64,000 bases of DNA from Glaucostegus cemiculus (Eukaryota), in assembly GCA_976551045.1 (NCBI GenBank), contig CDPCPM010000017.1, positions 6,200,001 through 6,264,000 of the forward strand, read 5' to 3'. Shown in pieces: positions 730 to 63,928 of the stretch (positions within the stretch are counted from its first letter, which is position 1; each line of letters opens with the position of its first letter). Position numbers and translations under genes: made by a program. Below the pieces are notes generated by a model that did not search any database, had not been told where the DNA came from, and worked only from the letters and a program-made list of their open reading frames with translations.

Positions 730-976
730 CAATAACTTGCCCCAGCACACAAGTTTACCGCTACAATATGACAGCCTGTAATCGTACCTGTGAATTTCTG
801 TCAAAGCCTGATTTTACATGTGAGTTTCAAGACGTTCCAGTTACTGGTTGTGGTTGCCCTGAGGGAATGTACATGAATGAAAAAGCAACATGTGTGACCA
901 AATCAGAATGCCCTTGCTATGTCAATGGATTGATTATACAAGGAGGTCAGGCCCTTACACTTAATGGAATGACTTG
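730..976 (+). CDS. muc19: Mucin exon: TIL and start of E/VWC-like module of the D2 assembly ([20 protein letters not shown]...CPCYVNG...MTC)
   Basis: tttcaag acceptor; TG|gtgagt donor; TIL cysteine spacing. Confidence 0.88.
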
Positions 977-15900: not shown

Positions 15901-18900
15901 GGTGAAAGTGTGGGAATAGCTTATGACATCAAGAGGTAAGCTGAGGTTCTGAAGGTCCACAATATTTTCAAAGGGAGCATTCAGCCTGGAATCTTTCAGT
16001 AGACATGGATATCAATTTTCGGCAGCAGAGAGTATTCAGAAAAAGGTCCCTTCTTGTCCTCCCTCCTCTTGCCACAGACCCCATCTCTGAGAGATCGAGG
16101 AAAAGGCTAAATAAATGAATACTGAACATATCAACGTGCATACCAAAGAGTAAAAGAGAGATTCGATCTGATGCACAATGCATTAGCTAAAGCAGTTCAA
16201 TCATGTAATACTCCATCTTTTCTGGAGGATGTAATTTCCTTACCAAAAGTGCCTTTTCTCATTTACACAAGTGGGACAAATTTCATTGCAAATTTGGACA
16301 CAGATAGTCTAATGATGATCATCACTCAAGGATCACATGCTTACTAAAAGGTGTGCTTTTGAGCGAAAGAATGACAGGACAAATTAAGAAATAGATGTCA
16401 TGAAAATTCTGCATGTACTCAAATAAGGGAGGCACCATGAGGATTTCAAGATTTTACCTCTGTCTTCTTTATTATTGCTAACTCGTCCTGAAACTAATAC
16501 GTTCATGAAATGCAAGTTCAGTGAGTGAAAATACGTTATTCTTTCACCAGAAACAACACCATCCACATCACCAACTCCCACAAGTGTGTCCACCACCAGT
16601 TCTACAACAGGTCAGTCACGTTCCTTTCAATACACATTGAAACACCTTAAGGAAAAGAGTGGATCTATCTAATCTCACTTGCATGGCTTCATTTCTCCAG
16701 CACCTTTGCATGATTTACATGCATTGCCTTTTCAGAAAAAAGGCACTTCTTGTAAAAGAGAGATTCCATTACATGTACGCAGTGCTTTAGCTTTGCCACC
16801 TAAACTCAGTGAAACTACAACCTATCAGGAGGTTGCCATTTGCATCCCGAAAGTGCGTTTTCTCATTCAAACAACTGGAATAAGTATCACTGCAGTTTTG
16901 GATGAAGATACTCTGATAAAGATCATCATCTCAAGGAACTCATGCTTCGTAAAAGAGGTGTGGATTTCATCAAGAGATTGTCAGTATGAATGACCAAGCA
17001 GATGTCATGTAAAATTCCTCCATGTACTCAAATCAGGAAAGTATCATCAAGGTTTGACGATTTTAGCACGGTCCTGTTAATAATCACTAACTCTTCGTGG
17101 ATTGATGTGCTTATGCAATGCAAGTCGTCTTCAGTGAGTGAAAATGCATTTATTCTTTCACCAGAAACAACACCATCCACATCAACAACACCCAAAAGTG
17201 TGTCCACCACCAGTTCTACAACAGGTGAGTCACGTTCCTTTCAATACACATTGAAACACCTTAAGGAAAAGAGTGGATCTTTCTAACATCACTTGCATGG
17301 CTTCATCTCTCCAGCATCATTGCATGATTTATGAACGTATATACTGTATGTTAATAAAACGTACGTCGATAGCGAACACATATTGGTTCAAAATTAGTCG
17401 ACCAACTTACCAATAGAATCTTCACAATGCTTAGGAAATCAGGAGGACCTGGCATGGTGTCTTCTGCTTCCCACTATCTTCCATACATTCAGCTGGAACA
17501 GGCAAAACTTGGCTGCTATACCTGATTATCACATTCCTTTCTTTTATCAGGAACAGCACCAACGACATCAGCAAATGTGACCACAACCAGTGCCACATCA
17601 GGTCAATATGACCATCCTTCACAATCGTTAGCATTTCCTTCAACACCTCTGGGCTCTGTTAATTGATGTTCCATTAACTGTAGCGTCAGTAACATTCCTA
17701 CATAGTTTTGCTAAAAGAAATTACAAATTCTCACCTTGAAGATGTGGGCTACAGCCCAGGAATGATGTAGGGGCCTCATGCTAATGACTCCCCTCAGTAC
17801 TTCCAAGAAGAGCAATGAGCTTGGCACATATCAATCCACGTTGATTGGTATTTTCGGCACCAAGACACTAAAACCTTGTCAGAAAACACCCTTCTCAACC
17901 TACCACAGACACAATCTCAGGATATTTGGTAATAGCTAGATGATTGAATATAGTCCATTGTCAGCTAAGTACTGCAGAGTAAAGGAATGATGAGATTCTG
18001 GATACATTGCTGGATGTGCCGCACCTCGATCTATTCAAAATCAGTCAGTGAAGGAGTTCAACAGAACTCTTCCCAGAGTCAGCTTCTCGCTTTCATACTT
18101 CTGTCCATGTAACAAGAATCAATTCAGAGTCACATAAAAGTTTTATGAAAATATTTATAATCTCATGGATCACAAGCTTACTAAGTACTGTGCATTATCT
18201 CCGACGAAACAGAGATCAATTTGTGTCTGAACATCATCAGCTCCGCTGTCGTGAAGATGATTTGAAAAATTCAAGCCAGTCTGAACAATATATGCTGAAT
18301 CATATCAAATCTGACCGTCTGCTCTTGCAATTGAAGTTTGTGGTACCAGTTGTAACACACTTGTACTTTTTCTCCAGGAACAACACCATCAGTAACTGGC
18401 ACAACTGAATCCACCAGCAGTTCCACAGCAGGTAAGTGAGAGTCCTTACAGCAAACATTGGAAAACTTTAAAACAAAGCGCAGCCTCTTCTAACACTTCT
18501 CACTGCTATTAGCATTTGTTACTCTTTTAACCTTCATGCTGGAAACATATCTCCGTAAATGTGTCACATTAGTAGCGAAACAATTAGATAGTTATTATAG
18601 AATCTTTATAAAGCTAAGGAAATGTGAAGGAATTCAGTTGGTGTCTTCTGATTCTCCCTGCCTTAAATACTATAAGGTGCAAGAAGGAAAATCTAGCTGG
18701 CGTGGTTGAGTCTAATATTCTTTTCTTGTATTTCAAAAATCAGAAACAACATCAACAACTGAGACCACTACCAGTACAACAACCACAACCACAACAGGTG
18801 AGTAACAATATCTTTCAAAAACGACAGCATGACCTTCAGCAACTCTGTGGCCTGTCAACTCCAGATCTATCTGTTCTGCAATCAGGAAAATTCACCCGTA

Positions 18901-21900
18901 TCCGCGACACTCAACATTAAATTGATTCATAGCTTTGCTCAAAAAATTACAATGACCTACCGCTCGAGTATTCGAATAACTTCTGAATTCAGGAGGGAAC
19001 TTGTGGTTCTGACTACCTTCATAGTTTCAAAAGGCGCAGGGAGCTTGGCATCTTCCATTGGACGTAGATGTCAATCTTCCGGCAGCAGAGCCTTTTCACA
19101 AATAGGGCTCTTCTCATAAAAGAGTGATTCAATTTCATGTACGCAGTGCTTTAGCTTTGGCACCTCAACTCTGCGGAAATCCAACTTTTCAGGAGGTTGC
19201 CATTTGCTTTCCGAAAGTGTCTTTTCTCATTCACACAATGGGAATAAATATCACTGCAGTTTTGGGCAAAGATATTCTGATAAAGATCATCATCTCAAGC
19301 ATCACATGCCTCCTAAAAGAGGTGTGCATTTGATCAAGAGATTGTCAGTATGAATGACCAACCAGATGTCATGTAAAATTCCTCCATGTACTCAAATCAG
19401 GAAAGCATCATCAAGGTTTGACAATTTTAGCACAGTCCACTTTATAATCGCTAACTCTTCGTGGATTGATGCGCTTATGCAATGCAAGTCGTCTTCAGTG
19501 AGTGAAAATGCATTTATTCTTTCACCAGAAACAACACCATCTACATCAACAACTCCCACAAGTGTGTCCACCACCAGTTCTACAACAGGTCAGTCACGTT
19601 CCTTTCAATACACATTGAAACACCGTAAGGAAAAGAGTGGATCTTTCTAACATCACTTGCATGGCTTCATTTCTCCAGCACCTTTGCATGATTTATGAAC
19701 GTATATGCTGTATGTTAATGAAATGTACGTCGATATCGATCACATATTGGTTCAAAGTTAGTCGACCAACTTACCAATAGAATCTTCACAATGCTTAGGA
19801 AATCAGGAGGACCTGGCATGGTGTCTTCTGCTTCCCACTATCTTCCATACATTCAGCTGGAACGGGCAAAACTTGGCTGCTGTACCTGATTATCACATTC
19901 CTTTCTTTTATTAGGAACAGCACCAACGACATCAGCAACTGTGACCACAACCAGTACCACATCAGGTCAGTAAGACCATCTTTCAAAATTGTTAGCATTT
20001 CCTTCACCACCTCTGGGCTCGGTTAATTGATGTTCCATTAACTCTAGCGTCACTAACATTCCACCATAGTTTTGCAGAAAGAAATAACAAATTCTCACCT
20101 TGAAGATGTGGGGTACAACCCAGGAATGAAGTAGGGGCCTCGTGCTAATGACTCCCCTCAGTACTTCCAAGAAGACAATGAGCTTGGCACATATCAATCC
20201 ACGTTGATTGGTAGTATCGGCACCAAGAAACCAAAACCTTGCCAGAAAAGCCCCTTCTCTACCTCATACAGACACAACCTCAGGATATTTGGTAATAGCT
20301 AGATGATTGAATATAGTCCATTGTCAGCTAAGTACTGCAGAGTAGAGGAATGATGAGATTCTGGATACATTGCTGGATGTGCCGCACCTCGATCTTCTCA
20401 AACTCTGTCAGTGAAGCAGTTCAACAGAACTCTTCCCAAAGTCAGCTTCTCACTTTCATACTTCTGTCCATGTAACAAGAATCAACTCAGATTCACATAA
20501 AAGTTTTCTGAAAATATTTATAATCTCATGGATCACAAGCTTACTAAGTACTGTGCATGAGATCAAGATTTTGTCATTATCTCCGACGAAACAGAGATCA
20601 ATTTGTGTCTGAACATCATCAGCTCCGCCGTCGTGAAGATGATTTGAAAAATTCAAGCCAATCTGAACAATATATGCTGAATCATATCAAATCTGACCGC
20701 CTGCTCTTGCAATTTAAGTTTGTAGTACCAGTTGTAACACACTTGTACTTTTTCTCCAGGAACAACACCGTCAGTAACTGGCACAACTGAATCCACCAGC
20801 AGTTCCACAGCAGGTAAGTGAGAGTCCTTACAGCAAACACTGGCAAACTTTAAACCAGAGTGCAGCCTCTTCTAACACTTCTCACTGCTATTAGCATTTG
20901 TTACTTTTTTAACCTTCATGCTGTAAAAATATCTCCGTAAATCTGTTACATTAGGAGCAAAACAATTAGATAGTTATAGAATCTTGAAAAAGCTAAGGAA
21001 ATGTGAAGGAATTCAGTTGGTGTCTTCTGCTTCTCACCGCCTTTAATGCTTTCTGCTGCAAGAAGAAAAATCCAGCGGCCGTCGTTGAGTCTAATATTCT
21101 TTTCCTTTATTTCAAAAATCAGAAACAACAGCAGCAACCGAGACAACCACCACTACTACAACCACAACCATAACAGGTGAGTAACAATATCATTCAAAAA
21201 TGTCACCATGACCTTCAGCAACTCTGTGGCCTTCCAACTCCAGCTCTTTCTGTTCTGCCATCAGGAAAATTCACCCAAGTGTCCACGACACTCAACACTA
21301 CATTGATTCATACCTTTGCTCAAAAAATTACCGTGACCTCCCGCTCAATTAATCAAATAACTTATGAACTCAGGAGGGAACTTGTGGTTCTGACAGCCCT
21401 TTATATTTTCAAAAGGTACAGGGAGCTTGGCATCTTCCATTGGACGTGGATGTCAATCTTCTGCAGCAGAGCCTTTTCACAAAAAAGGCTCTTCTCGTAA
21501 AAGAGAGATTCCATTTCATGTATGCAGTGCTTTAGCTTTGGCACCTCAACTCTGTGAAACTCCAACTTTTCAGGAGGTTGCCATTTGCTTCCCGAAAGTG
21601 CCTTTACTCATTCACACAACTGGAATAAATATCACTGCAGCTTTGGACAAAGATATTCTGATAAAGATCATCATCTCAAGGAACACAAGCTTCCTAAAAG
21701 AGGTGTGGATTTCATCAAGAGATTGTCAGTATGAATGACCAAGCAGATGTCATGTAAAATGCCTCCATGTACTCAAATCAGGAAAGCATCATCAAGGTTT
21801 GACGATTTTAGCACAGTCCTCTTTATTATTGCTAACTCGTCCTGGATTGTTGTGCTTATGCAATGCAAGTCGTCTTCAGTGAGTGAAAATGCATTTATTC

Positions 21901-24900
21901 TTTCACCAGAAACAACACCATCCACATCAACAACTCCCACAAGTGTGTCCACCACCGGTTCTACAACAGGTCAGTCACGTTCCTTTCAATACACATTGAA
22001 ACACCTTAAGGAAAAGAGTGGATCTTTCTAACATCACTTGCATGGCTTCATTTCTCCAGCACTTTTGCATGACTTATGAATGTATATGCTGAATGTTAAT
22101 TAAACGTACATCTATATCGATCACATAATGGTTCAAAGTTAGTCGACCAGCTTACCAATAGAATCTTCAAAATGCTTAGGAAATCAGGAAGACCTGGGAT
22201 GGTGTCTTCTGCTTCCCACTGTCTTCCATACATTCAGCTGGAACGGGCAAAACTTGGCTGCTGTATCTGATTATCACATTCCTTTCTTTTATTAGGAACA
22301 GCACCAACGACAGCAGCAACTGTGACCACAACCAGAACCACAACAGGTCAGTAAGACCATCTTTCACAATCGTTAGCATTTCCTTCAGCACCTCTGGGCT
22401 CTGTTAAATTAAGTTCCATTAACTTGAGCGTCAGTAACATTCCTACATAGTTTTGCTGAAAGAAATTAGAAATCCTCACTGTGACATAGCCCAGGAATGA
22501 AGCAGGGGCCTCGTGCTACTGACTCCCCTCAGTACTTCCAAAAAGAGCAATGAGCTTGGCACATATCAATCCACATTGATTGGTAGTTTCGGCAACAAGA
22601 CACCAAAACCTTGTCAGAAAAGCCCCTTCTCTACCTCATACAGACACAACCTCAGGATATTTGGTAATAGCTAGATGATTGAGTTTAGTCCATTGTCAGC
22701 TAAGTACTGCAGAGTAAAGGAATGATGAGATTCTGGATAGATTGCTGGATGTGCCGCACCTCGATCTTCTCAAACTCTGTCAGTGAAGGAGTTCAACAGA
22801 ACTCATCCCAAAGTTAGCTTCTCACTTTCATACTTCTGTGCATGTAACAAGAATCAATTCAGATTCACATAAAGGTATTCTGAAAATATTTATAATCTCA
22901 TTGTTCACAAGCTTACTAAGTAGTGTGAATGAGATCGAGATTTTGACATTATCTCTGACGAAACAGAAATCAATTTGTGTCTGAACATCATCAGCTCCGC
23001 CGTCATGAAGATGATTTGAAAAATTCAAGCCAGTCTGAACAATATATGCTGAATCATATCAATCTGACCGCCTGCTCTTGCAATTTAAGATTGTAGTACC
23101 AGTTGTAACACACTTGTACTTTTTCTCCAGGAACAACACCATCAGTAACTGGCACAACTGAATCCACCAGCAGTTCCACAGCAGGTAAGTGAGAGTCCAT
23201 ACAGCAAACACTGGCAAACTTTAAACCAAAGTGCAGCCTCTTCTAACACTTCTCACTGCTATTAGCATTTGTTACTTTTTTAACCTTCATGCTGGAAACA
23301 TATCTCCGTAAATGTGTCACGTTAGTAGCGAAACAATTAGATAGTTATTATAGAATCTTTAAAAAGCTAAGGAAATGTGAAGGAATTCAGTTGGTGTCTT
23401 CTGCTTCTCCCTGCCTTAAATACTATAAGGTGCAAGAAGGAAAATCGAGCTGGCGTGGTTGAGTCTAATATTCTTTTCTTGTATTTCAAAAATCAGAAAC
23501 AACATCAACAACCGAGACCACTACCAGTACAACAACCACAACCACAACAGGTGAGTTACAATATCTTTCAAAAACGACAGCATGACCTTCAGCAACTCTG
23601 TGGCCTATCAACTCCAGATCTATCTGTTCTGCAATCAGGAAAATTCACCCGTATCCGCGACACTCAACATTAAATTGATTCATAGCTTTGCTCAAAAAAT
23701 TACAATGACCTACCGCTCAAGTATTCGAATAACTTCTGAATTCAGGAGGGAACTTGCGGTTCTGACTACCTTCATAGTTTCAAAAGGCGCAGGGAGCTTG
23801 GCATCTTCCATTGGACGTGGATGTCAATCTTCCGGCAGCAGAGCCTTTTCACAAAAAGGGCTCTTCTCATAAAAGAGTGATTCAATTTCATGTATGCAGT
23901 GCTTTAGCTTTGGCACCTCAACTCTGCGGAAATCAAACTTTTCAGGAGGTTGCCATTTGCTTTCCGAAAGTGTCTTTTCTCATTCACTCATGGGAATAAA
24001 TATCACTGCAGTTTTGGACAAAGATATTCTGATAAAGATCATCATCTCAAGCATCACATGCCTCCTAAAAGAGGTGTGCATTTGATCAAGAGATTGTCAG
24101 TATGAATGACCAACCAGATGTCATGTAAAATTCCTCCATGTACTCAAATCAGGAAAGCATCATCAAGGTTTGACGATTTTAGCACAGTCCACTTTATAAT
24201 CGCTCACTCTTCGTGGATTGATGCGCTTATGCAATGCAAGTCGTCTTCAGTGAGTGAAAATGCATTTATTCTTTCACCAGAAACAACACCATCGACATCA
24301 ACAACTCCCACAAGTGTGTCCACCACCAGTTCTACAACAGGTCAGTCACGTTCCTTTCAATACACATTGAAACACCGTAAGGAAAAGAGTGGATCTTTCT
24401 AACATCACTTGCATGGCTTCATTTCTCCAGCACCTTTGCATGATTTATGAACGTATATGCTGTATGTTAATGAAACGTACGTCGATATCGATCACATATT
24501 GGTTCAAAGTTAGTCGACCAACTTAACAATAGAATCTTCACAATGCTTAGGAAATCAGGAGGACCTGGCATGGTGTCTTCTGCTTCCCACTATCTTCCAT
24601 ACATTCAGCTGGAACGGGCAAAACTTGGCTGCTGTACCTGATTATCACATTCCTTTCTTTTATTAGGAACAGCACCAACGACATCAGCAACTGTGACCAC
24701 AACCAGTACCACATCAGGTCAGTAAGACCATCTTTCAAAATTGTTAGCATTTCCTTCACCACCTCTGGGCTCGGTTAATTGATGTTCCATTAACTCTAGC
24801 GTCACTAACAATCCACCATAGTTTTGCGGAAAGAAATAACAAATTCTCACCTTGAAGATGTGGGGTACAACCCAGGAATGAAGTAGGGGCCTCGTGCTAA

Positions 24901-48900: not shown

Positions 48901-51900
48901 CAACAGAACTCAACCCAAAGTTGGCTTCTCACTTTCATACTTCTGTGCATGTAACAAGAATCAATTCAGATTCACATAAAGGTATTCTGAAAATATTTAT
49001 AATCTCATTGTGCACAAGCTTACTAAGTAGTGTGAATGAAATCAAGATTTTGACATTATCTCTGACGAAACAGAAATCAATTTGTGTCTGAACATCATCA
49101 GCTCCGCCGTCATGAAGACGATTTGAAAAATTCAAGCCAGTCTGAACAATATATGCTGAATCATATCAAATCTGACCGCCTGCTCTTGCAATTTAAGTTT
49201 GTAGTACCAGTTGTAACACACTTGTACTTTTTCTCCAGGAACAACACCATCAGTAACTGGCACAACTGAATCCACCAGCAGTTCCACAGCAGGTAAGTGA
49301 GAGTCCTTACAGCAAACATTGGAAAACTTTAAAACAAAGCGCAGCCTCCTCTGACACTTCTCACTGCTATTAGCATTTGTTACTTTTTTAACCTTCATGC
49401 TGGAAACATATCTCCGTAAATGTGTCACATTAGTAGCGAAACAATTAGATAGTTATTATAGAATCTTTAAAAAGCTAAGGAAATGTCAAGGAATTCAGTT
49501 GGTGTCTTCTGCTTCTCCCTGCCTTAAATACTATAAGGTGAGAGAAGGAAAATCTAGCTGGCGTGGTTGAGTCTAATATTCTTTTCTTGTATTTCAAAAA
49601 TGAGAAACAACATTAACAACCGAGACCACTACCAGTACAACAACCACAACCACAACAGGTGAGTAACAATATCTTTTAAAAACGACAGCATGACCTTCTG
49701 CAACTCTGTGCCTATCAACTCCAGATCTATCTGTTCTACAATCAGGAAAATTCACCCGTATCCACGACACTCAACATTAAATTGATTCCTAGCTTTGCTG
49801 AAAAAATCACAATGACCTACCGCTCAAGTATTCGAATAACTTCTGAATTCAGGAGGGAACTTGCGGTTCTGACTACCTTCATAGTTTCAAAAGGCGCAGG
49901 GAGCTTGGCATCTACCATTGGACGTGGATGTCAATCTTCCGGCAGCAGAGCCTTTTCACAAAAAGGGCTCTTCTCATAAAAGAGTGATTCAATTTCATGT
50001 ACGCAGTGCTTTAGCTTTGGCACCTCAACTCTGCGGAAATCCAACTTTTCAGGAGGTTGCCATTTGCTTTCCGAAAGTGTCTTTTCTCATTCACACAATG
50101 GGAATAAATATCACTGCAGTTTTGGACAAAGATATTCTGATAAAGATCATCATCTCAAGCATCACATGCCTCCTAAAAGAGGTGTGCATTTGATCAAGAG
50201 ATTGTCAGTATGAATGACCAACCAGATCTCATGTAAAATTCCTCCATGTACTCAAATCAGGAAAGCATCATCAAGGTTTGACGATTTTAGCACAGTCCAC
50301 TTTATAATCGCTAACTCTTCGTGGATTGATGCGCTTATGCAATGCAAGTCGTCTTCAGTGAGTGAAAATGCATTTATTCTTTCACCAGAAACAACACCAT
50401 CTACATCAACAACTCCCACAAGTGTGCCCACCACCAGTTCTACAACAGGTCAGTCACATTCCTTTCAATACACATTGAAACACCGTAAGGAAAAGAGTGG
50501 ATCTTTCTAACATCACTTGCATGGCTTCATTTCTCCAGCACCTTTGCATGATTTATGAACGTATATGCTGTATGTTAATGAAACGTACGTCGATATCGAT
50601 CACATATTGGTTCAAAGTTAGTCGACCAACTTACCAATAGAATCTTCACAATGCTTAGGAAATCAGGAGGACCTGGCATGGTGTCTTCTGCTTCCCACTA
50701 TCTTCCATACATTCAGCTGGAACGGGCAAAACTTGGCTGCTGTACCTGATTATCACATTCCTTTCTTTTATTAGGAACAGCACCAACGACATCAGCAACT
50801 GTGACCACAACCAGTACCACATCAGGTCAGTAAGACCATCTTTCAAAACCGTTAGCATTTCCTTCACCACCTCTGGGCTCGGTTAATTGATGTTCCATTA
50901 ACTCTAGCGTCACTAACATTCCACCATAGTTTTGCGGAAAGAAATAACAAATTCTCACCTTGAAGATGTGGGGTACAACCCAGGAATGAAGTAGGGGCCT
51001 CGTGCTAATGACTCCCCTCAGTACTTCCAAGAAGAGCAATGAGCTTGGCACATATCAATCCACGTTGATTGGTAGTTTCGGCACCAAGAAACCAAAACCT
51101 TGCCAGAAAAGCCCCTTCTCTACCTCATACAGACACAACCTCAGGATATTTGGTAATAGCTAGATGATTGAATATAGTCCATTGTCAGCTAAGTACTGCA
51201 GAGTCGAGGAATGATGAGATTCTGGATACATTGCTGGATGTGCCGCACCTCGATCTTCTCAAACTCTGTCAGTGAAGCAGTTCAACAGAACTCTTCCCAA
51301 AGTCAGCTTCTCACTTTCATACTTCTGTCCATGTAACAAGAATCAACTCAGATTCACATAAAAGTTTTCTGAAAATATTTATAATCTCATGGATCACAAG
51401 CATACTAAGAACTGTGCATGAGATCAAGATTTTGTCATTATCTCCGACGATACAGAGATCAATTTGTGTCTGAACATCATCAGCTCCGCCGTCGTGAAGA
51501 TGATTTGAAAAATTCAAGCCAGTCTGAACAATATATGCTGAATCATATCAAATCTGACCACCTGCTCTTGCAATTTAAGTTTGTAGTACCAGTTGTAACA
51601 CACTTGTACTTTTTCTCCAGGAACAACACCATCAGTAACTGGCACAACTGAATCCACCAGCAGTTCCACAGCAGGTAAGTGAGAGTCCTTACAGCAAACA
51701 CTGGCAAACTTTAAACCAAAGTGCAGCCTCTTCTAACACTTCTCACTGCTATTACCATTTGTTACTTTTTTAACCTTCATGCTGTACAAATATCTCCGTA
51801 AATCTGTCACATTAGGAGCAAAACAATTAGATAGTTATAGAATCTTGAAAAAGCTAAGGAAATGTGAAGGAATTCAGTTGGTGTCTTCTGCTTCTCACCG

Positions 51901-54900: not shown

Positions 54901-57900
54901 TCATCATCTCAAGCATCACATGCCTCCTAAAAGAGGTGTGCATTTGATCAAGAGATTGTCAGTATGAATGACCAGCCAGATGTCATGTAAAATTCCTCCA
55001 TGTACTCAAATCAGGAAAGCATCATCAAGGTTTGACGATTTTAGCACAGTCCACTTTATAATCGCTAACTCTTCGTGGATTGATGTGCTTATGCAATGCA
55101 AGTCGTCTTCAGTGAGTGAAAATGCATTTATTCTTTCACCAGAAACAACACCATCTACATCAACAACTCCCACAAGTGTGTCCACCACCAGTTCTACAAC
55201 AGGTCAGTCACATTCCTTTCAATACACATTGAAACACCGTAAGGAAAAGAGTGGATCTTTCTAACATCACTTGCATGGCTTCATTTCTCCAGCACCTTTG
55301 CATGATTTATGAACGTATATGCTGTATGTTAATGAAACGTACGTCGATATCGATCACATATTGATTCAAAGTTAGTCGACCAACTTACCAATAGAATCTT
55401 CACAATGCTTAGGAAATCAGGAGGACCTGGCATGGTGTCTTCTGCTTCCCACTATCTTCCATACATTCAGCTGGAACGGGCAAAACTTGGCTGCTGTACC
55501 TGATTATCACATTCCTTTCTTTTATTAGGAACAGCACCAACGACATCAGCAACTGTGACCACAACCAGTACCACATCAGGTCAGTAAGACCATCTTTCAA
55601 AATCGTTAGCATTTCCTTCACCACCACTGGGCTCGGTTAATTGATGTTCCATTAACTCTAGCGTCACTAACATTCCACCATAGTTTTGCGGAAAGAAATA
55701 ACAAATTCTCACCTTGAAGATGTGGGGTACAACCCAGGAATGAAGTAGGGGCCTCGTGCTAATGACTCCCCTCAGTACTTCCAAGAAGAGCAATGAGCTT
55801 GGCACATATGAATCCACGTTGATTGGTAGTTTCGGCACCAAGAAACCAAAACCTTGCCAGAAAAGCCCCTTCTCTACCTCATACAGACACAACCTCAGGA
55901 TATTTGGTAATAGCTAGATGATTGAGTTTAGTCCATTGTCAGCTAAGTACTGCAGAGTAAGGAATGATGAGATTCTGGATAGATTGCTGGATGTGCCGCA
56001 CCTCGATCTTCTCAAACTCTGTCAGTGAAGGAGTTCAACAGAACTCAACCCAAAGTTGGCTTCTCACTTTCATACTTCTGTGCATGTAACAAGAATCAAT
56101 TCAGATTCACATAAAGGTATTCTGAAAATATTTATAATCTCATTGTTCACAAGCTTACTAAGTAGTGTGAATGAAATCAAGATTTTGACATTATCTCTGA
56201 CGAAACAGAAATCAATTTGTGTCTGAACATCATCAGCTCCGCCGTCATGAAGACGATTTGAAAAATTCAAGCCAGTCTGAACAATATATGCTGAATCATA
56301 TCAAATCTGACCGCCTGCTCTTGCAATTTAAGTTTGTAGTACCAGTTGTAACACACTTGTACTTTTTCTCCAGGAACAACACCATCAGTAACTGGCACAA
56401 CTGAATCCACCAGCAGTTCCACAGCAGGTAAGTGAGAGTCCTTACAGCAAACATTGGAAAACTTTAAAACAAAGCGCAGCCTCCTCTGACACTTCTCACT
56501 GCTATTAGCATTTGTTACTTTTTTAACCTTCATGCTGGAAACATATCTCCGTAAATGTGTCACATTAGTAGCGAAACAATTAGATAGTTATTATAGAATC
56601 TTTAAAAAGCTAAGGAAATGTCAAGGAATTCAGTTGGTGTCTTCTGCTTCTCCCTGCCTTAAATACTATAAGGTGAGAGAAGGAAAATCTAGCTGGCGTG
56701 GTTGAGTCTAATATTCTTTTCTTGTATTTCAAAAATCAGAAACAACATTAACAACCGAGACCACTACCAGTACAACAACCACAACCACAACAGGTGAGTA
56801 ACAATATCTTTCAAAAACGACAGCATGACCTTCTGCAACTCTGTGCCTATCAACTCCAGATCTATCTGTTCTACAATCAGGAAAATTCACCCGTATCCAC
56901 GACACTCAACATTAAATTGATTCCTAGCTTTGCTGAAAAAATCACAATGACCTACCGCTCAAGTATTCGAATAACTTCTGAATTCAGGAGGGAACTTGCG
57001 GTTCTGACTACCTTCATAGTTTCAAAAGGCGCAGGGAGCTTGGCATCTACCATTGGACGTGGATGTCAATCTTCCGGCAGCAGAGCCTTTTCACAAAAAG
57101 GGCTCTTCTCATAAAAGAGTGATTCAATTTCATGTACGCAGTGCTTTAGCTTTGGCACCTCAACTCTGCGGAAATCCAACTTTTCAGGAGGTTGCCATTT
57201 GCTTTCCGAAAGTGTCTTTTCTCATTCACACAATGGGAATAAATATCACTGCAGTTTTGGACAAAGATATTCTGATAAAGATCATCATCTCAAGCATCAC
57301 ATGCCTCCTAAAAGAGGTGTGCATTTGATCAAGAGATTGTCAGTATGAATGACCAACCAGATCTCATGTAAAATTCCTCCATGTACTCAAATCAGGAAAG
57401 CATCATCAAGGTTTGACGATTTTAGCACAGTCCACTTTATAATCGCTAACTCTTCGTGGATTGATGCGCTTATGCAATGCAAGTCGTCTTCAGTGAGTGA
57501 AAATGCATTTATTCTTTCACCAGAAACAACACCATCTACATCAACAACTCCCACAAGTGTGCCCACCACCAGTTCTACAACAGGTCAGTCACATTCCTTT
57601 CAATACACATTGAAACACCGTAAGGAAAAGAGTGGATCTTTCTAACATCACTTGCATGGCTTCATTTCTCCAGCACCTTTGCATGATTTATGAACGTATA
57701 TGCTGTATGTTAATGAAACGTACGTCGATATCGATCACATATTGGTTCAAAGTTAGTCGACCAACTTACCAATAGAATCTTCACAATGCTTAGGAAATCA
57801 GGAGGACCTGGCATGGTGTCTTCTGCTTCCCACTATCTTCCATACATTCAGCTGGAACGGGCAAAACTTGGCTGCTGTACCTGATTATCACATTCCTTTC

Positions 57901-60900
57901 TTTTATTAGGAACAGCACCAACGACATCAGCAACTGTGACCACAACCAGTACCACATCAGGTCAGTAAGACCATCTTTCAAAACCGTTAGCATTTCCTTC
58001 ACCACCTCTGGGCTCGGTTAATTGATGTTCCATTAACTCTAGCGTCACTAACATTCCACCATAGTTTTGCGGAAAGAAATAACAAATTCTCACCTTGAAG
58101 ATGTGGGGTACAACCCAGGAATGAAGTAGGGGCCTCGTGCTAATGACTCCCCTCAGTACTTCCAAGAAGAGCAATGAGCTTGGCACATATCAATCCACGT
58201 TGATTGGTAGTTTCGGCACCAAGAAACCAAAACCTTGCCAGAAAAGCCCCTTCTCTACCTCATACAGACACAACCTCAGGATATTTGGTAATAGCTAGAT
58301 GATTGAATATAGTCCATTGTCAGCTAAGTACTGCAGAGTCGAGGAATGATGAGATTCTGGATACATTGCTGGATGTGCCGCACCTCGATCTTCTCAAACT
58401 CTGTCAGTGAAGCAGTTCAACAGAACTCTTCCCAAAGTCAGCTTCTCACTTTCATACTTCTGTCCATGTAACAAGAATCAACTCAGATTCACATAAAAGT
58501 TTTCTGAAAATATTTATAATCTCATGGATCACAAGCATACTAAGAACTGTGCATGAGATCAAGATTTTGTCATTATCTCCGACGATACAGAGATCAATTT
58601 GTGTCTGAACATCATCAGCTCCGCCGTCGTGAAGATGATTTGAAAAATTCAAGCCAGTCTGAACAATATATGCTGAATCATATCAAATCTGACCGCCTGC
58701 TCTTGCAATTTAAGTTTGTAGTACCAGTTGTAACACACTTGTACTTTTTCTCCAGGAACAACACCATCAGTAACTGGCACAACTGAATCCACCAGCAGTT
58801 CCACAGCAGGTAAGTGAGAGTCCTTACAGCAAACACTGGCAAACTTTAAACCAAAGTGCAGCCTCTTCTAACACTTCTCACTGCTATTACCATTTGTTAC
58901 TTTTTTAACCTTCATGCTGTACAAATATCTCCGTAAATCTGTCACATTAGGAGCAAAACAATTAGATAGTTATAGAATCTTGAAAAAGCTAAGGAAATGT
59001 GAAGGAATTCAGTTGGTGTCTTCTGCTTCTCACCGCCTTTAATGCTTTCTGCTGCAAGAAGAAAAATCCAGCGGCCGTCGTTGAGTCTAATATTCTTTTC
59101 TTTTATTTCAAAAATCAGAAACAACAGCAGCAACCGAGACCACTACCACTACTACAACCACAACCATAACAGGTGAGTAACAATATCATTCAGAAATGTC
59201 ACCATGACCTTCAGCAACTCTGTGGCCTTCCAACTCCAGCTCTTTCTGTTCTGCCATCAGGAAATTCACCCAAGTGTCCACGACACTCAACACTACATTG
59301 ATTCATACCTTTGCTCAAAAAATTACCATGACCTCCCGCTCAATTAATCAAATAACTTATGAACTCAGGAGGGAACTTGTGGTTCTGACAGCCCTTCATA
59401 TTTTCAAAAGGCACAGGGAGCTTGGCATCTTCCATTGGACGTGGATGTCAATCTTCTGCAGCAGAGCCTTTTCACAAAAAAGGCTCTTCTCGTAAAAGAG
59501 AGATTCCATTTCATGTACGCAGTGCTTTAGCTTTGGCACCTCAACTCTGTGAAACTCCAACTTTTCAGGAGGTTGCCATTTGCTTCCCGAAAGTGTCTTT
59601 ACTCATTCACACAACTGGAATAAATATCACTGCAGTTTTGGACAAAGATATTCTGATAAAGATCATCATCTCAAGGAACACAAGCTTCCTAAAAGAGGTG
59701 TGGATTTCATCAAGAGATTGTCAGTATGAATGACCAAGCAGATGTCATGTAAAATGCCTCCATGTACTCAAATCAGGAAAGCATCATCAAGGTTTGACGA
59801 CTATACCACAGTCCTCTTTATTATTGCTAACTCGTCCTGGATTGTTGTGCTTATGCAATGCAAGTCGTCTTCAGTGAGTGAAAATGCATTTATTCTTTCA
59901 CCAGAAACAACACCATCCACATCAACAACTCCCACAAGTGTGTCCACCACCGGTTCTACAACAGGTCAGTCACGATCCTTTCAATACACATTGAAACACC
60001 TTAAGGAAAAGAGTGGATCTTTCTAACATCACTTGCGTGGCTTCATTTCCCCAGCACTTTTGCATGACTTATGAACGTATATGCTGAATGTTAATTAAAC
60101 GTACATCTATATCGATCACATAATGGTTCAAAGTTAGTCGACCAACTTACCAATAGAATCTTCAAAATGCTTAGGAAATCAGGAGGACCTGGGATGGTGT
60201 CTTCTGCTTCCCACTGTCTTCCATACATTCAGCTGGAACGGGCAAAACTTGGCTGCTGTATCTGATTATCACATTCCTTTCTTTTATTAGGAACAGCACC
60301 AACGACATCAGCAACTGTGACCACAACCAGTACCACAACAGGTCAGTAAGACCATCTTTCACAATCGTTAGCATTTCCTTCAGCACCTCTGGGCTCTGTT
60401 AAATTAAGTTCCATTAACTTGAGCATCAGTAACATTCCTACATAGTTTTGCTGAAAGAAATTAGAAATCCTCACTGGGACATAGCCCAGGAATGAAGCAG
60501 GGGCCTCGTGCTACTGACTCCCCTCAGTACTTCCAAAAAGAGCAATGAGCTTGGCACATATCAATCCACATTGATTGGTAGTTTCGGCACCAAGACACCA
60601 AAACCTTGTCAGAAAAGCCCCTTCTCTACCTCATACAGACACAACCTCAGGATATTTGGTAATAGCTAGATGATTGAGTTTAGTCCATTGTCAGCTAAGT
60701 ACTGCAGAGTAAAGGAATGATGAGATTCTGGATAGATTGCTGGATGTGCCGCACCTCGATCTTCTCAAACTCTGTCAGTGAAGGAGTTCAACAGAACTCA
60801 TCCCAAAGTTAGCTTCTCACTTTCATACTTCTGTGCATGTAACAAGAATCAATTCAGATTCACATAAAGGTATTCTGAAAATATTTATAATCTCATTGTT

Positions 60901-63900
60901 CACAAGCTTACTAAGTAGTGTGAATGAGATCAAGAGTTTGACATTATCTCTGACGAAACAGAAATCAATTTGTGTCTGAACATCATCAGGTCTGCCGTCG
61001 TGAAGATGATTTGAAAAATTCAAGCCAGTCTGAACAATATATGCTGAATCATATCAAATCTGACCGCCTGCTCTTGCAATTTAAGTTTGTAGTACCAGTT
61101 GTAACACACTTATACTTTTTCTCCAGGAACAACACCATCAGTAACTGGCACAACTGAATCCACCAGCAGTTCCACAGCAGGTAAGTGAGAGTCCTTACAG
61201 CAAACATTGGAAAACTTTAAAACAAAGCGCAGCCTCCTCTGACACTTCTCACTGCTATTAGCATTTGTTACTTTTTTAACCTTCATGCTGGAAACATATC
61301 TTCGTAAATGTGTCACATTAGTAGCGAAACAATTAGATAGTTATTATAGAATCTTTAAAAAGCTAAGGAAATGTCAAGGAATTCAGTTGGTGTCTTCTGC
61401 TTCTCCCTGCCTTAAATACTATAAGGTGAGAGAAGGAAAATCTAGCTGGCGTGGTTGAGTCTAATATTCTTTTCTTGTATTTCAAAAATCAGAAACAACA
61501 TCAACAACCGAGACCACTACCAGTACAACAACCACAACCACAACAGGTGAGTAACAATATCTTTCAAAAACGACAGCATGACCTTCAGCAACTCTGTGGC
61601 CTATCAACTCCAGATCTATCTGTTCTACAATCAGGAAAATTCACCCGTATCCGCGACACTCAACATTAAATTGATTCATAGCTTTGCTCAAAAAATCACA
61701 ATGACCTACCGCTCAAGTATTCGAATAACTTCTGAATTCAGGAGGGAACTTGCGGTTCTGACTACCGTCATAGTTTCAAAAGGCGCAGGGAGCTTGGCAT
61801 CTTCCATTGGACGTGGATGTCAATCTTCCGGCAGCAGAGCCTTATCACAAAAAGGGCTCTTCTCATAAAAGAGTGATTCAATTTCATGTACACAGTGCTT
61901 TAGCTTTGGCACCTCAACTCGGCGGAAATCCAACTTTTCAGGAGTTTGCCATTTGCTTTCCGAAAGTGTCTTTTCTCATGCACACAATGGGAATAAATAT
62001 CACTGCAGTTTTGGACAAAGATATTCTAAAAAAGATCATCATCTCAAGCATCACATGCCTCCTAAAAGAGGTGTGCATTTGATCAAGAGATTGTCAGTAT
62101 GAATGACCAGCCAGATGTCATGTAAAATTCCTCCATGTACTCAAATCAGGAAAGCATCATCAAGGTTTGACGATTTTAGCACAGTCCACTTTATAATCGC
62201 TAACTCTTCGTGGATTGATGCGCTTATGCAATGCAAGTCGTCTTCAGTGAGTGAAAATGCATTTATTCTTTCACCAGAAACAACACCATCTACATCAACA
62301 ACTCCCACAAGTGTGTCCACCACCAGTTCTACAACAGGTCAGTCACATTCCTTTCAATACACATTGAAACACCGTAAGGAAAAGAGTGGATCTTTCTAAC
62401 ATCACTTGCATGGCTTCATTTCTCCAGCACCTTTGCATGATTTATGAACGTATATGCTGTATGTTAATGAAACGTACGTCGATATCGATCACATATTGAT
62501 TCAAAGTTAGTCGACCAACTTACCAATAGAATCTTCACAATGCTTAGGAAATCAGGAGGACCTGGCATGGTGTCTTCTGCTTCCCACTATCTTCCATACA
62601 TTCAGCTGGAACGGGCAAAACTTGGCTGCTGTACCTGATTATCACATTCCTTTCTTTTATTAGGAACAGCACCAACGACATCAGCAACTGTGACCACAAC
62701 CAGTACCACATCAGGTCAGTAAGACCATCTTTCAAAATCGTTAGCATTTCCTTCACCACCACTGGGCTCGGTTAATTGATGTTCCATTAACTCTAGCGTC
62801 ACTAACATTCCACCATAGTTTTGCGGAAAGAAATAACAAATTCTCACCTTGAAGATGTGGGGTACAACCCAGGAATGAAGTAGGGGCCTCGTGCTAATGA
62901 CTCCCCTCAGTACTTCCAAGAAGAGCAATGAGCTTGGCACATATGAATCCACGTTGATTGGTAGTTTCGGCACCAAGAAACCAAAACCTTGCCAGAAAAG
63001 CCCCTTCTCTACCTCATACAGACACAACCTCAGGATATTTGGTAATAGCTAGATGATTGAGTTTAGTCCATTGTCAGCTAAGTACTGCAGAGTAAGGAAT
63101 GATGAGATTCTGGATAGATTGCTGGATGTGCCGCACCTCGATCTTCTCAAACTCTGTCAGTGAAGGAGTTCAACAGAACTCAACCCAAAGTTGGCTTCTC
63201 ACTTTCATACTTCTGTGCATGTAACAAGAATCAATTCAGATTCACATAAAGGTATTCTGAAAATATTTATAATCTCATTGTTCACAAGCTTACTAAGTAG
63301 TGTGAATGAAATCAAGATTTTGACATTATCTCTGACGAAACAGAAATCAATTTGTGTCTGAACATCATCAGCTCCGCCGTCATGAAGACGATTTGAAAAA
63401 TTCAAGCCAGTCTGAACAATATATGCTGAATCATATCAAATCTGACCGCCTGCTCTTGCAATTTAAGTTTGTAGTACCAGTTGTAACACACTTGTACTTT
63501 TTCTCCAGGAACAACACCATCAGTAACTGGCACAACTGAATCCACCAGCAGTTCCACAGCAGGTAAGTGAGAGTCCTTACAGCAAACATTGGAAAACTTT
63601 AAAACAAAGCGCAGCCTCCTCTGACACTTCTCACTGCTATTAGCATTTGTTACTTTTTTAACCTTCATGCTGGAAACATATCTCCGTAAATGTGTCACAT
63701 TAGTAGCGAAACAATTAGATAGTTATTATAGAATCTTTAAAAAGCTAAGGAAATGTCAAGGAATTCAGTTGGTGTCTTCTGCTTCTCCCTGCCTTAAATA
63801 CTATAAGGTGAGAGAAGGAAAATCTAGCTGGCGTGGTTGAGTCTAATATTCTTTTCTTGTATTTCAAAAATCAGAAACAACATTAACAACCGAGACCACT

Positions 63901-63928
63901 ACCAGTACAACAACCACAACCACAACAG
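730..63928 (+). CDS. muc19: Multi-exon gel-forming mucin gene, MUC19-like (partial: D2 end, D'D3, then micro-exon PTS domain); continues beyond both window edges
   Basis: GT-AG exons join in consistent phase into TIL/E, VWD ([14 protein letters not shown]...VCGLCGNFN), C8 and TIL domains, followed by Thr/Ser repeats. [31 protein letters not shown] and [19 protein letters not shown] match my recollection of MUC19/submaxillary apomucin rather than MUC2/5/6. Orthology was not tested. Confidence 0.8.
1060..1118 (+). CDS. muc19: Mucin exon ([20 protein letters not shown])
   Basis: ttttcacag acceptor; G|gtaatt donor; phase 2 in completes a Cys codon. Confidence 0.85.
1241..3430 (-). CDS. CR1 ORF2, 729 aa open frame: partial APE endonuclease fused in frame to reverse transcriptase
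   Basis: [19 protein letters not shown] (EN); [41 protein letters not shown] (RT). Confidence 0.9.
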   Translation of the reverse strand: MQGEGIRNEREDSEMEGRGQVGPTQFRNINTTGERRNGLKILYLNARSVRNKVGELEAQIRMGKYDVVGITETWLQGDQTWEMNFQGYTCYRKDRKVGRGGGVALLVRNEIQSLARGDIESGEVESVWIELRNCKGKLARNIKEDSKSFFRYVKGKKLVRNNVGPLKTESGEIITGNREMAVEFNEYFGSVFTGEDVRNLPEVQMDKRQRVMEELKWIDIRKEMVMGRLMGLKADKSPGPDGLHPRVLKEVALEIVDALVIIFRCSLDSGSVPEDWRMANVIPLFKKGGREKTGNYRPVSLTSVVGKMLESIIKDEIAAYLGINDRIGSSQHGFTKGKSCLTNLLEFFEDVTRKIDEGDSVDVVYLDFQKAFDKVPHRRLVGKMRAHGIGGRVLTWIENWLADRKLGVNGCFSEWQAVTSGVPQGSVLRPQLFTIYVNDLDEGIENNISKFADDTKLGGSATCVEEVRRIQGDLDRLGEWADTWQMKFNVDKCEVIHFGSRNRKADYYLNGVELGKGEVQRDLGILVHQSLKVNEQVQQAVMKANGMLACIMRGIEYKSKEILLHLYRALVRPLLEYCVQFWSPGLGKDILAIEGVQRRFTRLIPGMSGLSYAERLDRLGLYTLELRRLRGDQIETYKIVKGLDKIETGNMFQMLGKSRTRGHDLRIRGRPFRTEVRKNFFSQRVVSLWNTLPQRAVEANSLDTFKKELARFLIDRGIKGYGDKAGTGY
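3433..3655 (-). pseudogene. C-terminal fragment of CR1 ORF1 (SGNH esterase-like), with one internal stop
   Basis: [47 protein letters not shown]; DGLH is the SGNH DxxH motif; TAA lies just before ORF2. Confidence 0.8.
3791..3870 (+). CDS. muc19: Mucin exon, TIL' first half ([27 protein letters not shown])
   Basis: ttttcttcag acceptor; gtaagt donor; phase matches the exon at 1060-1118 across the LINE-containing intron. Confidence 0.88.
4204..4352 (+). CDS. muc19: Mucin exon, TIL'/E' ([30 protein letters not shown]...DCNNC)
   Basis: aag acceptor; TG|gtgagc donor; cysteine pattern. Confidence 0.88.
4448..4586 (+). CDS. muc19: Mucin exon, E' end and VWD3 start ([47 protein letters not shown])
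   Basis: tag acceptor; GAG|gtaagt donor; canonical VWD N-terminal motif. Confidence 0.92.
5868..5972 (+). CDS. muc19: Mucin exon, VWD3 ([35 protein letters not shown])
   Basis: tctcag acceptor; gtatgt donor; phase 0-0. Confidence 0.9.
6097..6285 (+). CDS. muc19: Mucin exon, VWD3 (GKELILLRG...[37 protein letters not shown])
   Basis: ttacag acceptor; AAG|gtgagt donor; 189 nt. Confidence 0.9.
6965..7410 (-). mobile_element. Degenerate 3' fragment of a CR1/HER1-like LINE
   Basis: Typical tail as read on + (aacatagaacaatacag...caggccctttggcccaca), then decayed ORF2 C-terminal sequence (RMEGYG-like) parallel to the copy at 1150. Confidence 0.75.
8412..8651 (+). CDS. muc19: Mucin exon, VWD3 end with CGLCG motif and C8 start ([13 protein letters not shown]...FGNSWK...CHKR)
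   Basis: aag acceptor; gtaaga donor; 240 nt; CGLCG at 8421-8435. Confidence 0.92.
8732..8888 (+). CDS. muc19: Mucin exon, C8 ([37 protein letters not shown]...WRTPELC)
   Basis: atcag acceptor; C|gtaagt donor. Confidence 0.92.
9105..9420 (+). mobile_element. tRNA-derived V-SINE (HE1-like)
   Basis: A-box-like gctggtagagc and B-box-like gagttcattcc; V-domain core tgtgtggcgtttgcatgttctccctgtgacc...ttctcccacatcctaaggatgtgc; CR1-like tail gtgggccgaag. Confidence 0.78.
10088..10213 (+). CDS. muc19: Mucin exon, TIL3 first half ([28 protein letters not shown]...AVLE)
   Basis: tacag acceptor; G|gtgttg donor; CDYYN..C.WHY.PCG motif. Confidence 0.9.
10385..11525 (+). mobile_element. Old, heavily decayed CR1 LINE fragment (RT to 3' UTR), sense orientation
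   Basis: Remnants FEKVP (~10428) and ISKFADDTK (~10650-10676); 3' UTR aagggcc...tgttcttat; many stops and indels. Confidence 0.78.
11796..11937 (+). CDS. muc19: Mucin exon, TIL3/E3 ([32 protein letters not shown]...DCEAC)
   Basis: aaag acceptor; TG|gtaaag donor; phase consistent. Confidence 0.9.
12660..12691 (+). CDS. muc19: Mucin micro-exon ending E3 ([11 protein letters not shown])
   Basis: ttacag acceptor; T|gtaagt donor; phase 2 in, phase 1 out. Confidence 0.85.
13150..13230 (+). CDS. muc19: First PTS exon ([27 protein letters not shown]), 81 nt, phase 1-1
   Basis: aacag acceptor; CAG|gtaaag donor; Thr/Ser-rich. Confidence 0.82.
14507..14560 (+). CDS. muc19: PTS micro-exon ([18 protein letters not shown]), 54 nt, phase 1-1; diverged relative of cassette exon C
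   Basis: Polypyrimidine tract then cag (CAGAAG tandem acceptor); G|gtgagt donor. Confidence 0.8.
15700..15735 (+). CDS. muc19: PTS micro-exon ([12 protein letters not shown]), 36 nt; shortened, diverged D-type exon
   Basis: acag acceptor; CAG|gtgagc donor; flanks resemble exon D flanks. Confidence 0.78.
16551..16610 (+). CDS. muc19: Orphan A-type PTS exon ([20 protein letters not shown]), 60 nt
   Basis: ctttcaccag acceptor; CAG|gtcagt donor. Confidence 0.78.
17165..17224 (+). CDS. muc19: Cassette exon A, first copy; 60 nt; consensus [20 protein letters not shown]
   Basis: ttctttcaccag acceptor; CAG|gt(g/c)agt donor; phase 1-1; present in all 20 units. Confidence 0.87.
17551..17601 (+). CDS. 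muc19: Cassette exon B, first copy; 51 nt; consensus [17 protein letters not shown]
   Basis: cctttcttttat(c/t)ag acceptor; CAG|gtca(a/g)t donor; phase 1-1. Confidence 0.85.
18378..18431 (+). CDS. muc19: Cassette exon C, first copy; 54 nt; [18 protein letters not shown]
   Basis: ctttttctccag acceptor; CAG|gtaagt donor; phase 1-1. Confidence 0.88.
18744..18797 (+). CDS. muc19: Cassette exon D, first copy; 54 nt; [18 protein letters not shown], alternating with [18 protein letters not shown] (e.g. 21123-21176)
   Basis: tttcaaaaatcag acceptor; CAG|gtgagt donor; phase 1-1. Confidence 0.86.
19354..47831 (+). repeat. Dimeric higher-order repeat, period 4739-4754 bp, with two alternating monomer types
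   Basis: Marker ORFs alternate MTNQ/MTKQ; 26488, 31227, 35966 and 40705 are each 4739 apart. Confidence 0.92.

Follow-up and report, generated by a model that had tools for sequence, protein, structure and literature searches.

A predicted PTS domain divided among 115 micro-exons in a Muc19-clade mucin gene of the ray Glaucostegus cemiculus

Results

A mucin gene spanning the window

The window analyzed here is a stretch of 64,000 nucleotides (positions 6200001–6264000 of contig C17) in a genome assembly of 2.85 Gb and 1,511 contigs; coordinates outside 1–64000 extend the window numbering. A gene model built with automatic splice-site choice, in which some non-PTS boundaries are possibly off by several codons, comprises 157 exons over 124.8 kb and a single open frame of 4,001 codons. 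All of its introns are GT–AG, and the only stop is located at the end. The exons divide into 29 N-terminal, 115 PTS and 13 C-terminal exons, and the domain order is D1-D2-D'D3, PTS, CysD, D4 and cystine knot (Table 1).

Three features of gel-forming mucins were found in this model. Three N-terminal VWD-C8-TIL units are indicated by alignment to the Mobula model P0001, which itself bears three such Pfam units and is 77.7% identical over the N-terminal 1,213 aa, and by Pfam VWD matches within two window exons (4449–4586 and 8412–8651). A Thr/Ser/Pro-rich domain is present in the predicted splice product, and the last exon contains a C-terminal cystine knot (PF00007, 25.3 bits against a cut-off of 24). 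When one D3 exon was used as a query, shark and ray "mucin-19-like" proteins were the top matches, with the best (91%) from Mobula. The mucin glycodomain proposed in a first-pass annotation of this DNA corresponds to a gel-forming mucin's PTS domain and is placed in frame between D3 and CysD.

Phase 1 is used both at the end of the D3 exon and at the start of the CysD exon, so that only phase 1-1 modules could be inserted between them. Because all PTS exons are phase 1-1 and both flanks are phase 1, single exons or blocks can be removed or copied without frameshift, as had been claimed. For the same reason, the frame alone is no proof of exon inclusion, since skipping of the whole array would also be in frame. 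In the intron after the mucin exon 1060–1118, a reverse transcriptase-like open frame of 738 codons lies antisense to the gene (1241–3457, minus strand); it resembles that of a LINE retroelement, perhaps CR1/L2-like.

Table 1 Features of the mucin gene, its PTS array and related genes. Positions are window coordinates unless a contig is given.
Feature	Position	Strand	Basis or remark
D1	~-16.6 kb (upstream of window)	+	homology
12 exons (model exons 18–29): end of D2, D', D3	730..12691	+	frame open throughout; last ends in phase 1
PTS exon 1, unique, 81 nt, phase 1-1	13150..13230	+	exon scan, gene model
PTS exon 2, unique, 54 nt, phase 1-1	14507..14560	+	exon scan, gene model
Diverged, shortened D-type exon (36 nt), 5' array edge	15700..15735	+	exon 92%, flanking introns 74–77% vs core D
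Edge A-type exon, 60 nt	16551..16610	+	exon 97%, flanking introns 77–85% vs core A
20 complete four-exon units (A 60, B 51, C 54, D 54 nt)	17165..63928	+	exon-type mapping
Example A exon	19529..19588	+	donor GTCAGT, below-median strength
Example B exon	19915..19965	+	acceptor strong, donor GTCAGT
Example C exon	20760..20813	+	unit's strongest sites; variable columns 1/54 over 26 units
Example D exon	21123..21176	+	donor strong, acceptor weak
D exon with GAG acceptor instead of CAG (sole such D exon)	49605..49658	+	lowest acceptor score of 115
CysD	83783	+	PF13330, 26.7 bits; 3' of array
D4	85565	+	fourth VWD, 56.7 bits; 3' of array
VWC-like part	between D4 and cystine knot	+	homology
Cystine knot	stop codon at 103922	+	PF00007
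Second micro-exon mucin (next gene)	C17:6381129-6471034		67 scan matches; 5.95-kb unit, five phase 1-1 exons (48, 57, 57, 48, 57 nt)
Third micro-exon mucin	C17:5092701-5112670	-	26 scan matches; unit ~1.37 kb
Two CysD-plus-PTS-module paralogues	C17:5830000-5856000 and 5985000-6034000		8 and 16 CysD matches; introns between modules
MUC5-like gene, giant central exon	C168:1225010-1241750	-	5,581-codon uninterrupted frame, mammal-like

Layout of the PTS array

Self-BLAST gave a period of ~2.37 kb, with identity of 96.8% at a two-unit offset versus 92.6% at one, and exon-type mapping placed four GT-AG micro-exons (60, 51, 54 and 54 nt; types A to D) in each unit, as first described. TRF, run with a maximum period of 500 and hence blind to a 2.37-kb array, detected no tandem repeat in the window. 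Between 16551 and 63928, where more than 80 micro-exons had been reported, we found 81 segments of these lengths, and the description of them as phase 1-1, multiples of three and stop-free is true of every one; all are bounded by AG and GT. They make up 9.4% of this interval (previously ~9%), and the 20 complete units encode 1,460 aa, the length estimated earlier. Other statements had to be corrected: Thr plus Ser accounts for 73.4% of these units and not ~77% (79% is reached with Pro), and the array does not end at 63928 but continues for 18 kb beyond the window, to 82044 by exon-type mapping, with three more PTS exons upstream.

Including these three unique or edge exons, the PTS region totals 115 micro-exons encoding 2,103 aa, which is 9.2% of 68.9 kb. 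The predicted product contains 53.7% Thr, 19.7% Ser and 5.6% Pro (79% together; Thr plus Ser ~73%), and a single N-glycosylation sequon occurs in the 20 complete units. A phase-free scan of the window for Thr/Ser-rich candidates between AG and GT returned 293 on the plus strand and 0 on the minus strand, the latter ruling out a minus-strand or other-phase reading of the array. When 1.064 Mb of the surrounding mucin cluster was scanned for phase 1-1 candidates, 181 of 187 matches lay within PTS intervals, all in sense orientation and belonging to two genes.

The segments as probable exons

Several lines of evidence make it very probable that the array segments are used exons. Scored with a splice-site matrix derived from the gene's 41 junctions outside the PTS region, the donors within one unit rank 1, 2, 9 and 10 among 116 GT dinucleotides, and the acceptors rank 1, 2, 7 and 24 among 147 AG. 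No stop, frameshift or loss of GT or AG was found across the 115 exons, and no other large PTS exon turned up between D3 and CysD when long Thr/Ser/Pro-rich frames were scanned for. The introns of exon types A to D have diverged from one another to shuffle level or close to it (similarity 0.49–0.62, baseline 0.52), while boundaries and frame persist.

Moreover, in seven pairs of older edge copies, exon identity is 326/366 (89%) versus 1,406/1,868 (75%) for the flanking introns (Fisher p ~1e-9, to be read with regard to the partial dependence of the pairs on one another). AG and GT are retained in all seven pairs. Gaps come in multiples of three in 2/2 exonic versus 3/27 intronic cases; runs of Thr codons slip by threes anyway. 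Synonymous exon sites in these pairs are also conserved over introns (0.15 vs 0.25 differences per site), a pattern that gene conversion among exons or low complexity could yield without translation. One paralogue pair is reversed, with the exon at 72% and its introns at 82–86% identity. The 26 young core units show a weak contrast, with variation at 24 of 219 columns in exons and 328 of 2,063 in introns (p 0.06); none of 16 splice columns varies and none of 15 gaps is exonic, neither of which is far from chance. The pN/pS ratio is 0.89 in core units and 0.83 in edge pairs, and values near 0.8–0.9 suggest that the exact residues are scarcely constrained. A search of sequencing runs with window positions 3700–13300 found no RNA run, which counts neither for nor against expression.

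Supporting evidence also comes from the nearest relatives. The "mucin-19-like" RefSeq models P0001 (Mobula) and P0008 (Pristis), of the Muc19/spiggin clade like the present gene, have similarly segmented PTS peptides; compared as peptides only, they contain the same segments of 14–22 residues, with Glu or Gly as the first residue, as is predicted because the phase 1 junction follows CAG. A Gly-Glu or Gly-Lys tail ends 6 of 41 public shark and ray models and would match read-through of a phase 1 donor. The prediction that automated annotation would miss this architecture was borne out in one respect only, in that just 3 of the 41 models reach the cystine knot, whereas 23 carry at least 60 PTS residues; the models were retrieved with a 2,000-residue ceiling, which favors incomplete ones.

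Evolution of the array

The repeat is no simple series of monomers: two types of unit, X and Y (~7% apart), and chimeras of the two make up a higher-order array. X and Y alternate for 12 units and are followed by X-chimera-Y trimers. Pairwise differences among 26 aligned units of ~2,370 nt range from 0 to 185 sites in a nested pattern with distinct sub-blocks, and the array edges are more diverged and mosaic. Units 14, 17, 20 and 25 match Y at the first 33 of 116 informative columns and X thereafter, with the switch in the B–C intron. Units 14, 17 and 20 mutually differ at only 1–5 sites and thus stem from one event; units 22 and 24 differ at none. The chimeric units record unequal crossing-over, indicating that copy number has changed in the past, and are direct traces of the copy-number part of the mechanism by which the first-pass annotation had supposed mucin length to be tuned.

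Based on these patterns, we propose that a founder, consisting of a single phase 1-1 exon and its introns, was duplicated and that its copies diverged into types A to D. This block of four exons would then have been amplified as a dimer and later as a trimer. With introns making up 91% of each unit, most crossovers and small indels would be intronic and the frame would be kept. Of the 15 gaps in the core units, 14 have a length not divisible by three and all lie in introns, which suggests that the intron share absorbs events that would cause frameshifts in a one-exon domain.

Splice-site strength and interpretation of the array

Splice-site strength differs among the exon types. With the 41-site matrix, most D copies have an acceptor in the 0–10th percentile of those elsewhere in the gene, and the A and B donors (GTCAGT) score at the 17th; C exons are strong at both ends, with near-top scores. 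An in-frame AG is located 30 nt upstream of 28 of 30 A exons, and 26 of 28 B exons have a second in-frame AG 6 nt into the exon. The weak sites may mark the likeliest skips, and the D exon with the GAG acceptor (Table 1) is the best candidate.

Starting from the position, phase, open frame, splice dinucleotides, repeat structure and chimeric units, all of which are directly observed, we propose, with a probability of roughly 0.6, that the array represents in-frame micro-exons between D3 and CysD of an intact gel-forming mucin gene, which would be mostly spliced together to give a predicted O-glycosylated domain of ~2,100 residues whose length has been changed by unequal crossing-over. The gain or loss of whole exon-plus-intron units by such crossing-over would alter PTS length. 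D exons whose acceptors are weak would most probably account for occasional skips, which would be harmless and not regulated. As judged from what is known of the family, the product would be secreted and would polymerize via D3 and the cystine knot into a mucus gel.

A less probable course, though one with some weight, is that the exons are real but often skipped, in a regulated or stochastic manner, such that a single allele would give mucins of graded lengths; this is the splicing part of the tuning supposed in the first-pass annotation. The weak D acceptors and A and B donors, the single GAG acceptor and the in-frame alternative acceptors kept in A and B exons agree with this idea. It also has precedents in chicken MUC2 (PMC3549977), in the SmPoMuc genes (PMC2576457) and in FIM-C.1, which is described as polymorphic via alternative splicing (PMC7177656). 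All 115 exons are symmetric (phase 1-1), which would fit skipping, but symmetry is no sign of skipping because tandem duplication by itself requires it. In addition, the alternative acceptors in young copies persist through recent copying, the C exons are near the top in splice scores, and near-identical units would leave little sequence for unit-specific regulation.

It is much less likely that the array is an intronic satellite, derived from once-coding exons and now mostly spliced out, with a short mucin containing little PTS as the product. A whole-array skip would keep the frame between the phase 1 flanks, pN/pS is near 0.9 and exon–intron contrast is weak in the core units, and gel-forming mucins lacking PTS, such as ovomucin, are known (PMC4948705). 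This explanation has to contend with 115 exons without stop, frameshift or lost GT/AG, with exons that outlast introns in old copies, with no other large PTS exon between D3 and CysD in the scan, and with two paralogues that bear independent micro-exon arrays. We consider it least probable of all that the architecture is real and the unit number an assembly artefact. Identical or near-identical units (22 and 24 at 0 sites; 14, 17 and 20 at 1–5) speak for such an error, but the 1.064 Mb contain zero N, and a simple mis-join would not produce nested differences (0–185 sites), sub-blocks and diverged edges. Even then, the count would change and the design would not.

Comparison with known mucin genes

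The gene takes a known design to an unusually large, four-exon form in a mucin of the Muc19 clade that retains D4 and CysD, and embodies no new principle. Chicken (and zebrafish) Muc13 carries its PTS in near-identical short exons of 20 aa each, one exon per repeat, and its authors proposed in 2006 that length varies through recombination and splicing, perhaps as an ancestral mucin design (PMC1552070). Splitting of the PTS into near-identical short exons is common to both genes; Muc13, however, belongs to the transmembrane SEA mucins and has EST support for a PTS of at least 12 repeats (PMC1552070), whereas the present gene is a predicted secreted D-domain mucin with four exon types per repeat, 115 exons and a higher-order array, known from the genome alone. 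In SmPoMuc of Schistosoma mansoni, a 27-bp exon and its introns form ~1-kb tandem units, up to 20 in number, that are under concerted evolution with >93% identity; spider silk and SOWgp genes are cited there as like cases (PMC2576457). An exon-plus-intron unit repeated in tandem is again shared. SmPoMuc is an unrelated invertebrate protein with one exon per unit and with transcripts that were studied (PMC2576457), in contrast to the present vertebrate gel-forming mucin, read from the genome only, in which each 2.37-kb unit holds four exons.

In our 26 aligned units, short in-frame exons and introns are repeated and homogenized jointly, as in Muc13 and SmPoMuc, while each unit holds four diverged exons instead of one. 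By its repeat organization, the gene works like these two but is a variant. The novelty assigned to it in the first-pass annotation was overstated, because the architecture and the splicing idea are in print for Muc13 (PMC1552070) and the repeat design for SmPoMuc (PMC2576457). What it adds is a complete gene model, free of gaps, in which the glycodomain of a gel-forming mucin from a vertebrate is split into 115 micro-exons, far above the numbers in the compared cases (at least 12 in chicken Muc13 and up to 20 in SmPoMuc). It is also a good test case for the 2006 idea that PTS length is set by splicing, for which the weak exons named above serve as predictions.

Many small PTS-like exons also occur in the MUC19 genes of rodents and humans. 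Human MUC19 is a weaker precedent than had been claimed, as its central VNTR exon is intronless in the longest isoform (PMC13345508). Mammalian MUC19 is by definition without D4 and CysD (PMC4948705), whereas both are present here, and with the CysD and fourth VWD 3' of the array the gene was not classed as a MUC19 of the mammalian type. Lang et al. (2016) reported that Callorhinchus has three Muc19 paralogues and that some spiggins possess a fourth VWD (PMC4948705); a Muc19-clade gene with D4 and CysD bears on the form of the ancestral Muc19.

Mammalian MUC2, MUC5AC and MUC5B share the domain order D1-D2-D'D3-PTS/CysD-D4-cystine knot with the present gene. Their mucin domain is contained in one large exon (PMC9712336), as in the MUC5-like gene on C168 of this genome, in contrast to 115 micro-exons here. 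Chicken MUC2 is gel-forming with a PTS spread over several exons, one in-frame splice variant of which lacks 165 aa; it differs in having ~14 exons, with ten 69-aa cassettes interleaved with CysD, and no long micro-exon array (PMC3549977). We found no published exon structure of a shark or ray mucin PTS domain, although subscription papers and supplements (for example, that of PMC4948705) might contain one.

Family placement and the paralogue cluster

In D-domain trees, the genes of the cluster group with tetrapod and ray-finned Muc19, apart from MUC2/5, with SH-aLRT support of 96 (57 rows) and 99.6 (27 rows, one long VWF-like row serving as outgroup); these were quick searches without bootstrap, with no MUC6 or spiggin row and with group labels taken from the sources' names. 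A topology joining the cluster to MUC2/5 was rejected (p-AU 0.011). By its D domains, the gene belongs to the Muc19/spiggin clade. CysD and D4 are present as in MUC2 and MUC5, but membership of that group was rejected on the grounds that the D domains fall outside the MUC2/5 clade and that there is no single large central exon. The COR-A, TMEM117, alpha-adaptin and transaldolase families, which mark the mammalian MUC19 neighborhood, are on other contigs in this assembly of 1,511 contigs.

At least seven D-domain mucin genes are located on C17 between 5.07 and 6.67 Mb, with just 30 kb of the stretch from 5.16 to 5.74 Mb sampled. The cluster displays three PTS designs side by side: micro-exon arrays, CysD-plus-PTS modules and a single large frame; in one gene no array was found. 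The second and third micro-exon mucins have phase 1-1 arrays of their own with different units, and by this structure their arrays appear independent of that in the window; a single origin of the three genes was neither supported nor rejected (p-AU 0.08). The third is nearly identical to the Pristis model P0008. In the two paralogues with CysD-plus-PTS modules, frames of 270–360 codons recur every 2.6–3.1 kb, and one further paralogue has a single PTS frame of 535 codons. The second micro-exon mucin contains a 3-kb intron with an amplified antisense LINE-like frame and has three CysD near its end.

A more far-reaching reading, which we regard as doubtful, is that the weak D acceptors and A and B donors turn a cassette array of some 100 exons into a splicing dial, by which one allele of ray Muc19-clade genes could yield polymer strands whose glycosylated part ranges from a few hundred to 2,100 residues, depending on tissue or challenge. 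If this were true, the paralogues with micro-exons, CysD modules and a single exon would keep the steps from a fragmented ancestral PTS to the giant MUC2/5 exon.

Other VWD-containing loci were seen during the survey. A further such gene lies between cluster members at C17:5503493-5516800, and the von Willebrand factor-like gene used as tree outgroup, identified from layout and low similarity only, is at C17:3451000-3512500. At C375:858000-956000, a 7.1-kb tandem repeat with several VWD exons per unit occurs in about ten copies; it is presumably FCGBP- or zonadhesin-like.
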